Position numbers and translations under genes: made by a program
Shown here: one piece after another, positions 3,124 to 7,214 of the stretch
How positions within the stretch are numbered: the first letter of the stretch is position 1
Layout: each line of letters starts with the position of its first letter
The notes under the pieces: model-generated
Seen by the model: the letters and a program-made list of their open reading frames with translations, nothing else
What the model was told of the DNA's origin: nothing
The model's database searches: none
Assembly: GCA_010093995.1 (NCBI GenBank)
Contig: ML992502.1
Span: 2,721,462 to 2,754,798 of the forward strand
Reading direction: 5' to 3'
Length of the DNA stretch: 33,337 nt
Origin: Elsinoe ampelina
Taxonomy: Eukaryota

Positions 3124-4566
3124 ATGTGGGCGCGTACAAGCTTGCTAGCAGGCCTCGCCGCTACAACGGCGGCAGAGACAATTCACAGCGTGGTTGTCTT
3201 CTCACGCCATGGAGACCGGAGCTCCAAGTACTACCCTTTGTACCAGATGACCGCGCTGGGGGCTACGCAGGTCTATGAGTCTGGCAACTTCTACCGCCAG
3301 AGGTATCTGTCCAACACATCAGACCATCAGATCGCCGGTATTTCCCCAGACCGCGTCGTCGAACCCCAAGTCTGGGCAAGCGCTCCTGATCAAGCGGTGC
3401 TCTATCAGACAGCGACGAACTTCCTCCAAGGTCTCTATCCACCTCTTGGGACTATCAATAACGAGATTGGCACCGAGGAATTGACCAATGGCACATCCAC
3501 CACTGATCCTCTCAATGGCTACCAGTACATTCTTGTGCACGGTGAGGACTCCAATTCGCCAGACACGATCTGGATCAAAGGCGACGAGCAATGTCCGGCC
3601 TGGAGCAGCGCGAGCAAGACCTATCGTACTTCGCCTTCTTACCTTGACCGCCTCAATTCCACTGCGTCCTTCTACTCGCAATTTGAGCCAATCTTGAACC
3701 CAATCATGGGCGCCGGCAATGTCAGCTACAAGAATGCTTACGACGTGTTCGATCTCCTCAACACTGCCTCCATTCACAATGCTACCGTAGCGCCTCGCAT
3801 CCCAAGTGATGCGCTCGACCAAGCTCGCTACCTCGCCAATGAGTGGGAATGGAATATGAACTACAATGCGACTCAACCATCCAGGTCAGTGGGAGGTGCC
3901 GCCCTGGCTGGCGGCATACTCGCCCAGATGGACGCGGCCGTCAAGTCCAAAGCGACAAAGCAGAAGTTTAACCTCATGGCCGGCAGCTACGATACCTTCT
4001 TGGCTTTCTTCGGTCGCGCCAACCTGACGGCAGCCAGCGACAATTTCTATGGTCTGCCAAACTACGCTGCCACGATGGCTTTTGAATTGTTCAGCGAAGC
4101 GGATGATGCAGCGTTTCCTACCAACGTCAATGACGACTTGCGAGTCCGTTTCTTGTTCAGGAATGGCAGCGAGACCAGCTTGGATGCATATCCTCTATTT
4201 GGTCAAAGTCAAGAGAGTCTGTCGTACGGACAGTTTGTCGGCGAAATGTCACCCAGAGCAGTCACCAGTGTCCCACAGTGGTGCTCGACCTGTGGCAGCC
4301 TAGCAGACTTTTGCGTGGCGGCAAATCAGACCAACAGTGCCGCTGCGGATAAGGCAACCACGACATCAGCGTCCAAAATGTCCAACGCTGCAGCTGGAGG
4401 CATCGGCGCTGGTGTCACGCTCGCAGTAGTTGCTGTGCTGGGTGGACTCGCGGCGTTGCTGATGCGCAGGAGAAAGGGCAGGAAGACTGAGCAGCCAGTG
4501 ACAATGGTGGTAGCGCGCCCAAAGATGGAGAAGCGACTGAGTGCCAGCGAGACGTCCTCCGTGTAG
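3124..4566 (+). CDS. Histidine acid phosphatase (His_Phos_2 clade), signal peptide plus C-terminal transmembrane anchor, 480 aa
   Basis: N-terminal signal peptide, VVVFSRHGDRS catalytic motif, many N-x-S/T sites, and a TM helix GIGAGVTLAVVAVLGGLAALLM followed by RRRKGRK. Confidence 0.9.
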   Translation: MWARTSLLAGLAATTAAETIHSVVVFSRHGDRSSKYYPLYQMTALGATQVYESGNFYRQRYLSNTSDHQIAGISPDRVVEPQVWASAPDQAVLYQTATNFLQGLYPPLGTINNEIGTEELTNGTSTTDPLNGYQYILVHGEDSNSPDTIWIKGDEQCPAWSSASKTYRTSPSYLDRLNSTASFYSQFEPILNPIMGAGNVSYKNAYDVFDLLNTASIHNATVAPRIPSDALDQARYLANEWEWNMNYNATQPSRSVGGAALAGGILAQMDAAVKSKATKQKFNLMAGSYDTFLAFFGRANLTAASDNFYGLPNYAATMAFELFSEADDAAFPTNVNDDLRVRFLFRNGSETSLDAYPLFGQSQESLSYGQFVGEMSPRAVTSVPQWCSTCGSLADFCVAANQTNSAAADKATTTSASKMSNAAAGGIGAGVTLAVVAVLGGLAALLMRRRKGRKTEQPVTMVVARPKMEKRLSASETSSV

Positions 4567-4878
4567 AAGACCGGACATGAGGGGTAGGTCCGTCAATATG
4601 TAATGCATCCAATAGCAAGAAACAAATCGTATCAGAAAAATAAGCTTAGATGCAATCTGCACGGTCCGGATTGCTTGACTGTTTTTGGACTAAATGATCC
4701 ACAATGGTTGCCTCTTCGGTTCCCGGTCCGCCGATATGGCGCATGCAAATGCTCGTGCGGCGATGGGATTTTCTCAAGGCGAAAAGAAGTATAAACCGCT
4801 GGCGGCATTCTTGATCGTGCGAACATCAGATCTTCTTGAACGCCGTACCACCCACAGAGATTCTGAAGAGTGATCATC

Positions 4879-5397
4879 ATGTTCGAATTTATCCTCATCT
4901 CGCTCCTACAGCGATTGCTGTCCGCCATCATTCCTTACCTGCAAACGGCTGAACGCAGACTTCAACATCTGTTACACCAGAACGATGACGAGGAAAGGGA
5001 CAAATATGTTACCCCTCTCATACTCACAGCAAGCGAAATTGAAGCTCGTTCGTTCGAAGGCTTTGCACCGGGCACAGCGAACAACGTCTATTGGCGCACC
5101 CTTATCTCTCGCGACAGGACCCCGAGCGATAGCCTTACAGTCGGCAAAGCTGTGCTTCCTCCAATGTCAGGACAGCTGTGCCCGCACGCCCACCAGCAGG
5201 CTGAGGTGTACCATATTCTCTCTGGCAAGGGCGCAGTGACTCTTGGTGAAGGCGAGAGAGAAGTCAACGCTGGCGATGTAGTGTACATTCCAGGAGACGA
5301 GCGACATGGTATCCGCAACCTGAGCGAAAAGGAAGAGCTGACCTGGATGTACTACTTTGCCTGCGATGGCTTCGAAGATGTCAAGTACCGCTTCTAG
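4879..5397 (+). CDS. Cupin protein resembling the bacterial DMSP lyases DddK/DddW (intronless, about 172 aa from ATG 4879)
   Basis: Cupin motif 1 PHAHQQAEVYHILSGKG and motif 2 GDVVYIPGDERHG. The flanking VYWRTLISRDRT and C-terminal FACDGFEDVKYRF segments match the DddW/DddK pattern as I recall it. Confidence 0.8.
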   Translation: MFEFILISLLQRLLSAIIPYLQTAERRLQHLLHQNDDEERDKYVTPLILTASEIEARSFEGFAPGTANNVYWRTLISRDRTPSDSLTVGKAVLPPMSGQLCPHAHQQAEVYHILSGKGAVTLGEGEREVNAGDVVYIPGDERHGIRNLSEKEELTWMYYFACDGFEDVKYRF

Positions 5398-5742
5398 CGG
5401 GCGCGTTCTTTGTGTCGCAGGCTGCCGTGCTGGGCATACACGGCCTGCGACCAGGACGCTATTTCAACAACAAGATAACAATCCGTTTCAACAAATGACG
5501 GATGGCCTGATGATGTTTCTTGAAACATTCTGGCCAAGTTTCGCAGATCAGCGCAGATGGATTTGCACAGCCTGCCCCGCCTGCTCCGCCGCCCCGCTCC
5601 GCCCTGCTCGACTGCATGCCTGACCCAACACCTGTCTGGCACCTGATCACGGTCCTTGCAGTATGGGTTTTCTTGATGGTCTATAACTATCCCGTGGCAC
5701 TCACCGGTCTTCCATTGATAGCAACTACCACAGCCCACAACC

Positions 5743-6549
5743 ATGAGCAAAGCTACCATCTCGGAAAAGCCAAGCCCACCCGCGTCCCATCACGACCCGT
5801 CAAGCAGTGTACCTGCGGAATCGCAAGACACCTCACCACCGGTATACGACTTCACCGACTCCAAACCACTCTCTGCTGGTGAAGAAAAGAAGCGACTGGC
5901 CGCCAATGACAAGGCCGCCAATGTCGCCGACCTTGGTTCCTCGACATGCTCTTCGTCGTCCTTGACACAAACAACATGGCAGATCGTCACCGACTCTCGC
6001 ACATCAGGTTCATTCGATGTGCTCGATGACGCCGGTACCAAGCTCTATCGCATCCAGAAACGTGGTCGAAGCCCTCAAGTTCGACTTACATCCCTCACGA
6101 ATGGGCAACAGATTGGAGAGGCTTCGTACCTTTCCCATTCTCAAGTCGTTGACATGGACATCCAAGACGTCAAAGATGTCGAGCTCCGACCCGCTGGAAA
6201 GGGCAAGGATTACACCTACTCATCGCCTTCTCTCATGCGCCGCCTCAACTGGCACCGCGGTGCGATCGCCGGCCACGTCACGAGTATCACATGCAACGAC
6301 GAGCGAGGTGATGAAGTTGCCAAGTGGTCCAACGTCGGTATGAGCTGGAGTAAAGTCGCCAAGCTGGAGTTTGCGAGATGGATGGAAGTGGGTTCCGTCG
6401 AGGACGTACGGCGGCGGAAGGAGGAGATATTGTTCGTTGCGACGGTCATGCATTTCAAGGCGAGCATCGCGGCGAAGGGATTGCATATGGATGTGGCCAT
6501 GTCGTCGACGCCGGGGCTGGGCTTGTGGGGCATTTCTGCTGGGCCGTAA
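5743..6549 (+). CDS. Hypothetical protein, 268 aa; disordered N-terminus plus possible tubby-C/LURP-one-like beta-barrel domain
   Basis: Long ORF with ATG in a good context (caaccATG). Beta-strand-like segments (FDVLDDAGTKLYRI, LNWH, EVAKW, AKLEF) end in a hydrophobic helix (EEILFVATVM). The fold is an inference. Confidence 0.7.
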   Translation: MSKATISEKPSPPASHHDPSSSVPAESQDTSPPVYDFTDSKPLSAGEEKKRLAANDKAANVADLGSSTCSSSSLTQTTWQIVTDSRTSGSFDVLDDAGTKLYRIQKRGRSPQVRLTSLTNGQQIGEASYLSHSQVVDMDIQDVKDVELRPAGKGKDYTYSSPSLMRRLNWHRGAIAGHVTSITCNDERGDEVAKWSNVGMSWSKVAKLEFARWMEVGSVEDVRRRKEEILFVATVMHFKASIAAKGLHMDVAMSSTPGLGLWGISAGP

Positions 6550-6962
6550 TCGAGCATCACATGCTGCTGCCAGCACAGCTGCCACGTAGGGACGCACAAT
6601 GTGTAAAATACAGATTCCACTTCTTCCACTTCACCTCTTCTCCTTCCTTGTCGTCGCCGTCTTCCATATCGCACAAATTCTCCGTGTCACCAGCGTAAAG
6701 ATACTACCAGCACGAGCATACCAGCAGCGACGACATACCAGCAGCGACCACCACCACGACCTCCCACCTCCTCAGATCCTACCAGACCGCCGGCGCCTCC
6801 TTCATCTTTCCTCTTCTCTCTCCCGCTCTTCGTACGTTAGACCTTTTGCCCTTCCGTGGGTCGAGGCGGCAGGCGAGCTTCTCCCCCAGCTACAGCATCG
6901 ATGGTCCGACGACCATCAATAACTACCAGGGAGCGGCGCCGCCGTTCTCCTCCAGTGTCGTG

Positions 6963-7214
6963 ATGGAGGATGTCCTCCATCGGCTGACCTGTCTTGAGTG
7001 AGTACTACCAGGAATCGGTGAGTGTGGTAGGTACTGACGGAGATCCAGGGAGGCGCATAAGGAGGACATGAAGGCGGTGAGGGAGGAGACGGGCAAGGTC
7101 CGGGCGGATCTTGAAGGGGAGAACGATCGGTTGCGGGCGGAGCTGAAGGTGGTGAAGAGGGATCTGGAGGAGTGTCGTGCCCAGCTTTGCCTGGATGAGA
7201 ATGAGCTTGTATGA
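6963..7214 (+). CDS. Putative small coiled-coil protein, not in the ORF track (exons 6963-6997 and 7049-7214; 5' end uncertain)
   Basis: A 51-nt intron GTGAGT...ACTGAC...CAG (6998-7048) joins MEDVLHRLTCLE to EAHKEDMKAVREETGKVRADLEGENDRLRAELKVVKRDLEECRAQLCLDENELV*. The frame stays open upstream to 6699 without an ATG. Confidence 0.55.

Follow-up and report, generated by a model that had tools for sequence, protein, structure and literature searches.

The stretch of DNA analyzed here comprises 33,337 nucleotides (nt) of the Elsinoe ampelina genome (assembly GCA_010093995.1, contig ML992502.1, positions 2,721,462 to 2,754,798 of the forward strand), and its whole length is referred to as the window. 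An intact open reading frame (ORF) on its forward strand encodes a small cupin, for which an earlier interpretation made from the letters alone (hereafter the sequence-only reading) had proposed the signature of the bacterial dimethylsulfoniopropionate (DMSP) lyases DddK and DddW and, by extension, a second route to dimethyl sulfide (DMS) in a fungus. Our analysis suggests that the product of this gene is rather likely a cupin lyase of the DddK/DddW type with a mononuclear metal site, placed in an ascomycete clade that matches the recently described fungal family DddF. The gene and its features are as follows (window coordinates; aa, amino acids).

4790–4795, forward strand: TATAAA, which the sequence shows 84 nt upstream of the start codon; by function a putative TATA box.
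4864–4866, forward strand: in-frame TGA, 12 nt before the ATG, seen in the sequence; the ORF listing shows no earlier ATG in this frame.
4879–5397, forward strand: intact ORF of the 172-aa cupin (P0001), stop codon included, with an uninterrupted frame from the ATG at 4879 to the TAG at 5395–5397.
4879–5013, forward strand: N-terminal extension, aa 1–45, a helix, hydrophobic at first and then amphipathic (MFEFILISLLQRLLSAIIPYL...), with an acidic linker after it (AlphaFold2 model, Kyte-Doolittle profile).
5083–5394, forward strand: cupin barrel, aa 69–172, homologous to DddK residues 23–122 (phmmer, BLASTP, Pfam, Foldseek).
5092–5121, forward strand: WRTLISRDRT, aa 72–81, with W72 equivalent to Trp26 of the DddK cation-π box (BLASTP alignment).
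5182–5211, forward strand: PHAHQQAEVY, aa 102–111 (translated sequence).
5185–5211, forward strand: cupin motif 1, H103-x-H105-x3-E109-x-Y111, equivalent to H56/H58/E62/Y64 of DddK and H81/H83/E87/Y89 of DddW (alignments).
5293–5310, forward strand: cupin motif 2, GDERHG, aa 139–144, with H143 equivalent to DddK His96 and DddW His121 (alignments).
5344–5352, forward strand: W156-M-Y158, equivalent to Phe108 and Trp110 of the DddK aromatic box (BLASTP alignment).
5371–5394, forward strand: FEDVKYRF, aa 165–172, with F165 equivalent to DddK Phe117 and Y170 to DddK Tyr122; the end carries no type 1 peroxisomal targeting signal (PTS1) (alignment).

The motifs picked out by the sequence-only reading (PHAHQQAEVY, GDERHG, WRTL-x3-DRT and FEDVKYRF) are thus all present within one intact 172-aa ORF. 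Because of the in-frame TGA, the frame cannot reach further upstream without an intron, and the ATG has an A at position −3. Two homologues, P0004 of Sphaceloma murrayae and P0003 of another assembly, have the same full length (172 aa), and the nearest named relatives are the proteins of Elsinoe fawcettii (89% identity) and S. murrayae (67%, 172 aa). The E. fawcettii annotation (P0002) has 159 aa and departs from the E. ampelina protein right after the distal His (…GDERHQSQRKGRIDLDVLFRL), a divergence that removes the aromatic-box residues together with the C-terminal Tyr; this C-terminus stems either from an error in the gene model or from a frameshift in the E. fawcettii assembly.

Contigs from public runs, whose kind is unrecorded, span the ORF co-linearly (X6, 4810–6734; X4, 4842–5006 and 4977–6734; X3, 4989–6998). 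No joint was observed inside the cupin ORF in these contigs, which, with the kind of run only guessed, says nothing certain on expression, start site or splicing; the region at ∼4713–4809 is without cover in all four public runs. In the two more divergent runs (X6 and X4), six of the eight ORF differences listed, and all three of those within the N-terminal extension, fall at third codon positions, counts that refer to the differences listed and leave aside 48 further ones.

DddK is the closest solved cupin to the E. ampelina protein, both by sequence and by fold. In a phmmer search against all PDB chains, four DddK sequence entries lead (E 1.3e-13 to 2.4e-12, aa 69–170), followed by BacB as the next protein (E 9e-7). 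As a DddK reference, we used P0265, a 130-aa ORF from a marine metagenome that was found with a degenerate DddK-motif pattern and differs from PDB 6a53 by one residue over 129 aa; BLASTP aligns it to the E. ampelina protein with 36 identities over 101 positions (36%, E 2e-18). An AlphaFold2 model based on a 147-sequence alignment reached a mean predicted local distance difference test score (pLDDT) of 94.8 and shows a long helix at aa 2–40 followed by the barrel. When this model was compared to the PDB using Foldseek, DddK entries took the six top places (E 5.6e-12 to 1.1e-11, target template modeling (TM) score 0.82–0.92, root-mean-square deviation (rmsd) 1.5–1.6 Å; 6a53 at target TM 0.91 and rmsd 1.6 Å), with auxin-binding protein and TM1459 following at ∼1e-8. 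The DddK/DddW signature proposed by the sequence-only reading is accordingly real, DddK being the closest relative among solved cupins (for a DddW-type protein with 37% identity, see below); the DddQ entry 5cu1 is reached only at E 0.21. Proteins belonging to the Cupin-DLL superfamily (DddQ, DddL, DddY and DddU; PF16867) share the two cupin motifs and the catalytic Tyr after the Glu with the E. ampelina protein, but are much more distant from it, as judged by this DddQ value and by a PF16867 score below threshold.

The likeness to DddK extends into the active site. As described in a study on DddK (PMC10686828), His56, His58, Glu62 and His96 are the metal ligands of this enzyme, Tyr64 serves as catalytic base, the carboxylate of the substrate is hydrogen-bonded by Tyr122, and the sulfonium head is held in cation-π contact with Tyr21, Trp26, Phe108, Trp110 and Phe117. 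In the pairwise alignment, the corresponding residues of the E. ampelina protein are H103/H105/E109/H143 (metal), Y111, Y170 and W72/W156/Y158/F165, so that four of the five cation-π residues are matched; the Tyr21 region is not reliably aligned and offers no clear counterpart. Across the 67 named fungal homologues in the alignment, each of the four metal ligands and Y111 are invariant (67/67), and Y170 (66/67), W72 (65/67) and F165 (64/67) are nearly so. Position 156 is Trp in 60 and Phe in 6 of these proteins, and position 158 is Tyr in 60 and Trp in 6. Since the box and the Tyr residues are kept in nearly all these homologues, conservation extends, as judged by alignment, beyond the metal site generic to cupins to the residues that would bind a carboxylate bearing a cationic head.

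Compared with DddK of ‘Candidatus Pelagibacter ubique’ HTCC1062 (PDB 5tfz, 5tg0 and 6a53–6a55), the E. ampelina protein therefore retains the ligands, the equivalents of Tyr64 and Tyr122, aromatics at the positions of Trp26, Phe108, Trp110 and Phe117, and a common C-terminal F-x-x-V-x-Y. The two proteins differ in that their 36% identity is confined to the barrel and that DddK belongs to another clade and a bacterial host, whereas the E. ampelina protein has an extra N-terminal helix, no clear Tyr21 counterpart and a eukaryotic host. As a side observation, one unnamed member of the fungal clade described below (P0010) reads H-L-H-Q-Q-E-E-I-D-Y, so that an Asp takes the place of the catalytic Tyr, which is displaced by one residue; in this variant, the lyase chemistry may be changed or lost.

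To place the protein among its relatives, homologues were collected by a phmmer search of 1.84 billion cluster representatives (1086 matches at E ≤1e-3, 198 at E ≤1e-10) and by two profile searches of a named protein collection, of which 120 of 131 matches and 108 matches, respectively, were listed. The matches listed include Dothideomycetes (Pyrenochaeta, Lentithecium, Periconia, Lasiodiplodia, Plenodomus, Macrophomina, Diplodia, Alternaria, Didymella, Lindgomyces, Pseudocercospora and Fulvia), Eurotiomycetes (Cyphellophora, Exophiala, Aspergillus and Penicillium) and Sordariomycetes (many Fusarium including F. lateritium, Colletotrichum, Diaporthe, Neonectria, Clonostachys and others), as well as Rhodobacterales cupins at lower scores; no Aureobasidium protein is among the matches listed in either search (120 of 131; 108).

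Phylogenetic trees were built from two alignments, both of them short, and are unrooted. In a FastTree analysis of 184 rows and 140 columns (reduced at 75% identity, rows <110 aa or >210 aa excluded), the E. ampelina protein and all 35 named fungal rows fall into one clade of 104 rows with a Shimodaira-Hasegawa (SH)-like support of 96, outside of which stand DddK and the remaining 79 unnamed rows. A quick IQ-TREE analysis (LG+C20 with posterior mean site frequencies) of 98 rows chosen by hand yielded a 52-row fungal clade (SH-like approximate likelihood ratio test (SH-aLRT) 98) made up of 35 fungal rows (32 named ones, the E. ampelina protein and the Elsinoaceae-like P0003) and 17 unnamed rows from the FastTree clade. 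Within it, the E. ampelina, Sphaceloma and P0003 proteins form a trio (support 99). The DddW-type group is separate (92), DddK is placed together with further unnamed rows (93), and the backbone linking these groups is unresolved. In both trees, the protein thus sits in a single fungal clade (96 and 98), apart from both DddK and DddW.

Profile scores are in line with this placement. The E. ampelina protein scores 148.5 bits with a profile of 55 named fungal proteins from which the Elsinoaceae were left out, 85.9 bits with a profile of 79 DddW-type sequences (P0345, 216.7 bits), and 60.9 bits with a profile of 75 DddK variants (DddK itself, 256.9 bits). Accordingly, it groups neither with SAR11 DddK nor with the Rhodobacterales DddW-type proteins in the 98-row IQ-TREE analysis or by the respective profiles, and on these sequence comparisons it is a member of an ascomycete clade and neither DddK nor DddW in the strict sense.

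The DddW-type protein used here, P0345 (152 aa, Ruegeria-type), is 37% identical to the E. ampelina protein over 105 aa, with which it has the ‘YRF’ end in common, and 38% identical to DddK. Its H81, H83, E87, Y89 and H121 stand exactly at the numbering of the R. pomeroyi enzyme (PMC4437653), and three Ruegeria species (R. marina, R. aquimaris and R. marisflavi) have proteins with 95% identity to it. We treat it as DddW-type on the basis of this numbering and of the genus, no R. pomeroyi record being among the returned loci. By its separate clade and the lower profile score (85.9 versus 148.5 bits), DddW differs from the E. ampelina protein. The database label ‘DddW’ is nevertheless carried by two members of the fungal clade, from Fulvia fulva and Pseudocercospora fuligena. 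The sub-clade with this label also holds Aspergillus and Penicillium copies, and an Aspergillus cupin ‘DddW’ was the subject of a 2024 study (Liu et al.) cited in the introduction of the DddF paper (PMC13738216).

Fungi do have a cupin-type route to DMS, as had been suggested from the sequence alone, and the premise that DddP is the only known fungal DMSP lyase is outdated. DddF, a fungal DddK-like cupin DMSP lyase, was described by Liu et al. (ISME J, 17 October 2026; PMC13738216), and the following is taken from that paper. In Aureobasidium melanogenum P16, the only DMSP-lyase candidate is the cupin DddF (PQ816729), which is ∼30% identical to DddK. Deletion of dddF ends growth on DMSP and DMS release, both of which are restored by complementation, and dddF transcription rises ∼3-fold with DMSP. 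The purified enzyme forms DMS and acrylate in equimolar amounts (Km 19.2 mM, kcat 45.2 s−1) and also cleaves dimethylsulfoxonium propionate (DMSOP), yielding dimethyl sulfoxide (DMSO); the protein was both predicted and observed to be cytoplasmic. Searching with minimum values of 40% identity and 60% coverage relative to the A. melanogenum P16 protein, the authors report homologues with 40–90% identity in Dothideomycetes, Eurotiomycetes, Leotiomycetes, Pezizomycetes, Sordariomycetes and Pichiomycetes; sixteen of them were selected for assay, and representative ones were active in vitro (PMC13738216).

The E. ampelina protein resembles DddF as a fungal, small, single-domain cupin that is DddK-like (∼30–36% identity), is found in Dothideomycetes and is distinct from DddK and DddW in trees, and the class range reported for DddF fits the named members of its clade. 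Because this clade shares the DddK-likeness and the class range of DddF, and because no fungal DddK-like proteins other than its members came out of an exhaustive search, the clade very likely corresponds to the published DddF family, an assignment made from the published description. The E. ampelina protein is thus probably a member of this already published family, as judged by sequence, with a lineage-specific N-terminal helix. No paper linking Elsinoe with DMSP was found in the literature searched.

From the homology, fold, residue conservation and clade membership observed here, we infer catalysis, substrate and metal as follows. By homology to DddK, H103, H105, E109 and H143 would coordinate a divalent metal such as Mn or Fe, to which, together with Y170, the carboxylate of DMSP (or DMSOP) would bind. 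The dimethylsulfonium head would be accommodated in the aromatic box formed by W72, W156, Y158 and F165, and Y111 would take the Cα proton, so that β-elimination would give DMS and acrylate. The hydrophobic/amphipathic helix of the Elsinoaceae might in addition tether or target the enzyme, a step to which we attach low confidence.

Several observations weigh against this assignment, some of which concern the placement of the protein. A profile of 35 unnamed sequences from outside the fungal clade gives it 133.2 bits, nearly as much as the fungal profile, and in the atlas its nearest clusters are mainly bacterial, Acidobacteriota and Actinomycetota being among them. The fungal clade itself contains paralogous sub-lineages, as seen from two Exophiala bonariae copies (P0157 and P0259) and from the distribution of Aspergillus and Penicillium proteins over two IQ-TREE sub-clades (P0276, P0277 and P0289 versus P0169, P0172 and P0173). 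The Elsinoaceae branch is long and attaches to a poorly resolved part of this clade, and the lineage may lie outside those assayed for DddF. Moreover, the link to DddF was drawn from the published description, the type sequence PQ816729 not being part of the comparison, and the 45-aa N-terminal helix extension sets the E. ampelina protein apart from the cytoplasmic type enzyme. Other observations concern the substrate. Elsinoe and Sphaceloma are terrestrial plant pathogens that would rarely meet DMSP, whereas the type DddF stems from a marine-derived yeast. A search by family found no DMSP- or acrylate-metabolism gene among the neighbours in the 33-kb window. The published Km of DddF is high (∼20 mM; PMC13738216), and a preprint from the Tawfik laboratory makes the case that, for much of the Cupin-DLL superfamily, cleaving DMSP is a side activity.

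These considerations raise the question of whether the same fold and elimination chemistry may act on a substrate other than DMSP in a terrestrial fungus, with any DMSP cleavage being a side activity. The sequence-only reading had itself offered a lyase for a related sulfonium or betaine as an alternative, and this may still apply. Such a substrate would be a carboxylate carrying a cationic group (sulfonium or quaternary ammonium) or another good leaving group at Cβ. The cation-π box is kept in the E. ampelina protein, but there is no clear counterpart of DddK Tyr21. The family is common in soil and plant genera (e.g. Fusarium, Colletotrichum, Aspergillus and Diaporthe), the nearest relatives outside the fungal clade, with the Acidobacteriota and Actinomycetota clusters of the atlas, are of untested activity, and according to the same preprint most Cupin-DLL members are not DMSP lyases and the activity of DddQ and DddW may be promiscuous. 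In A. melanogenum, however, DddF is needed for growth on DMSP and is induced by it ∼3-fold, and representative homologues are active in vitro (PMC13738216); the gene context in the window likewise points to no other substrate. We therefore regard a non-DMSP native substrate as rather unlikely, albeit as the most serious alternative to a DMSP lyase of the DddF type.

A more specific scenario arises from the termini of the fungal proteins. The hydrophobic N-terminal extension noted in the sequence-only reading is real: it comprises aa 1–45 and has no counterpart in DddK. In the AlphaFold2 model, the helix at aa 2–40 is predicted with block pLDDT values of 95/96/89/71. The Kyte-Doolittle profile (19-residue window) peaks at 1.66 at aa 1–19, which is borderline for a membrane span and includes one Arg mid-stretch, and aa 10–27 are amphipathic (hydrophobic moment 0.59). 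Since the extension aligns gap-free in the three Elsinoaceae-type proteins (E. ampelina, P0003 and P0004), and since a similar ‘LLQRL’ N-terminus is found in the fungal-clade member P0011, the extension is, on this alignment evidence, coding and conserved. On the model and the hydropathy profile it is probably an anchor or targeting signal, an assignment we make with low confidence.

At the opposite end, a PTS1-like tripeptide ([SAC][KRH][LM]) terminates 31 of the 67 named fungal homologues, typically as KAKL or KSKL at the end of a short extension beyond the YRF core, whereas the E. ampelina protein ends at YRF. Carriers include P0043, P0162, P0166, P0167, P0169, P0174, P0175, P0180–P0185, P0192, P0196, P0197, P0232, P0237, P0268, P0285 and others. 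These tails suggest peroxisomal targeting of the respective homologues. The word stem ‘peroxisom’ is absent from the text of PMC13738216, and no paper pairing ‘DMSP lyase’ with ‘peroxisomal’ was found in the literature searched. One could thus imagine that fungal DddF-type lyases are sorted by lineage, to peroxisomes via PTS1 in about half of them, to the cytoplasm in the type enzyme, and by an anchor-like helix instead in the Elsinoaceae, where the anchored form would act on, or detoxify, a host onium carboxylate other than DMSP. We consider this scenario as a whole doubtful and speculative; if true, the family would be a general ‘onium-propionate lyase’ of plant-associated fungi and not a marine DMSP enzyme.

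Much less probable is that the protein is a generic Cupin_2 member (isomerase, dioxygenase, decarboxylase or ligand-binding protein) whose likeness to DddK is limited to the common metal motif. It is true that only Cupin_2 (PF07883; 53.3 bits, E 2.3e-14, threshold 27.2 bits) and AraC_binding exceed their Pfam thresholds, that DMSP_lyase (PF16867) stays below its gathering threshold with 15.0 against 27 bits, and that NCBIfam yields weak matches alone, to gentisate dioxygenase, mandelonitrile lyase and oxalate decarboxylase. As a control, however, authentic DddK also misses PF16867 (21.2 bits), and NCBIfam holds no DddK or DddW model, so that these misses carry no information. Furthermore, the likeness reaches Trp26, Tyr64, Phe108, Trp110, Phe117 and Tyr122 of DddK, and the lead of DddK over other cupins exceeds six orders of magnitude by sequence E-value and amounts to about three by fold E-value, which makes a generic cupin very unlikely.

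The genes surrounding the cupin ORF were assigned by Pfam, and the two flanking ORFs are as follows.

3124–4566, forward strand: ORF of a histidine acid phosphatase (His_Phos_2; Pfam).
5743–6549, forward strand: 268-aa ORF directly downstream of the cupin ORF, with no Pfam family (Pfam search).

The product of the phosphatase ORF has an N-terminus resembling a signal sequence, numerous N-x-S/T sites, a stalk rich in Ser and Ala and, at its C-terminus, a hydrophobic segment ahead of RRRKGRK; from these features, it looks like a membrane-anchored ecto-phosphatase or phytase. The downstream ORF shares contigs with the cupin ORF in three of the public runs, which does not show a joint transcript. 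Other neighbours in the window belong to MBOAT_2, hemerythrin, peroxidase family 2, tautomerase, Pex2/12, the short-chain dehydrogenases/reductases (three ORFs) and Het-C. A reading of the locus as a gene cluster was rejected, as the neighbouring families give no functional link. At the start of the window, positions 1–2500 are strongly AT-rich (G+C 0.25–0.33) and adjoin gene-dense DNA with a G+C of ∼0.52–0.58; they may represent a repeat degraded by repeat-induced point mutation (RIP) or the boundary of an AT-isochore.

The least probable explanation is a recent horizontal acquisition of the gene from marine bacteria, as had been considered from the intronless appearance of the ORF and as the mostly bacterial composition of the wider family might suggest: we find no sign of such an event, the closest relatives being fungal, the fungal sequences forming one supported clade over three classes and the G+C of the gene (0.49–0.54) matching that of its neighbours (0.52–0.58), and the lack of interruption is not distinctive here because the flanking ORFs at 3124–4566 and 5743–6549 are equally uninterrupted. 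Since the rest of the family appears largely bacterial, an ancient transfer between bacteria and an early ancestor of the Pezizomycotina is possible, at a depth at which the unrooted trees are unresolved.

Taken together, these results favour a DMSP lyase of the DddF type over the alternatives considered. The sequence-only reading had inferred an enzyme family that was described experimentally only in October 2026, a point in favour of its approach. If the activity of the E. ampelina protein were confirmed, the gene would add little new mechanism. The PTS1-like tails and the N-terminal helix of the Elsinoaceae were not found in print in the literature searched. The present analysis probably extends the DddF family to the Elsinoaceae (Myriangiales), plant pathogens without an evident link to marine DMSP, an extension which sharpens the question of what DddF-type lyases do on land.

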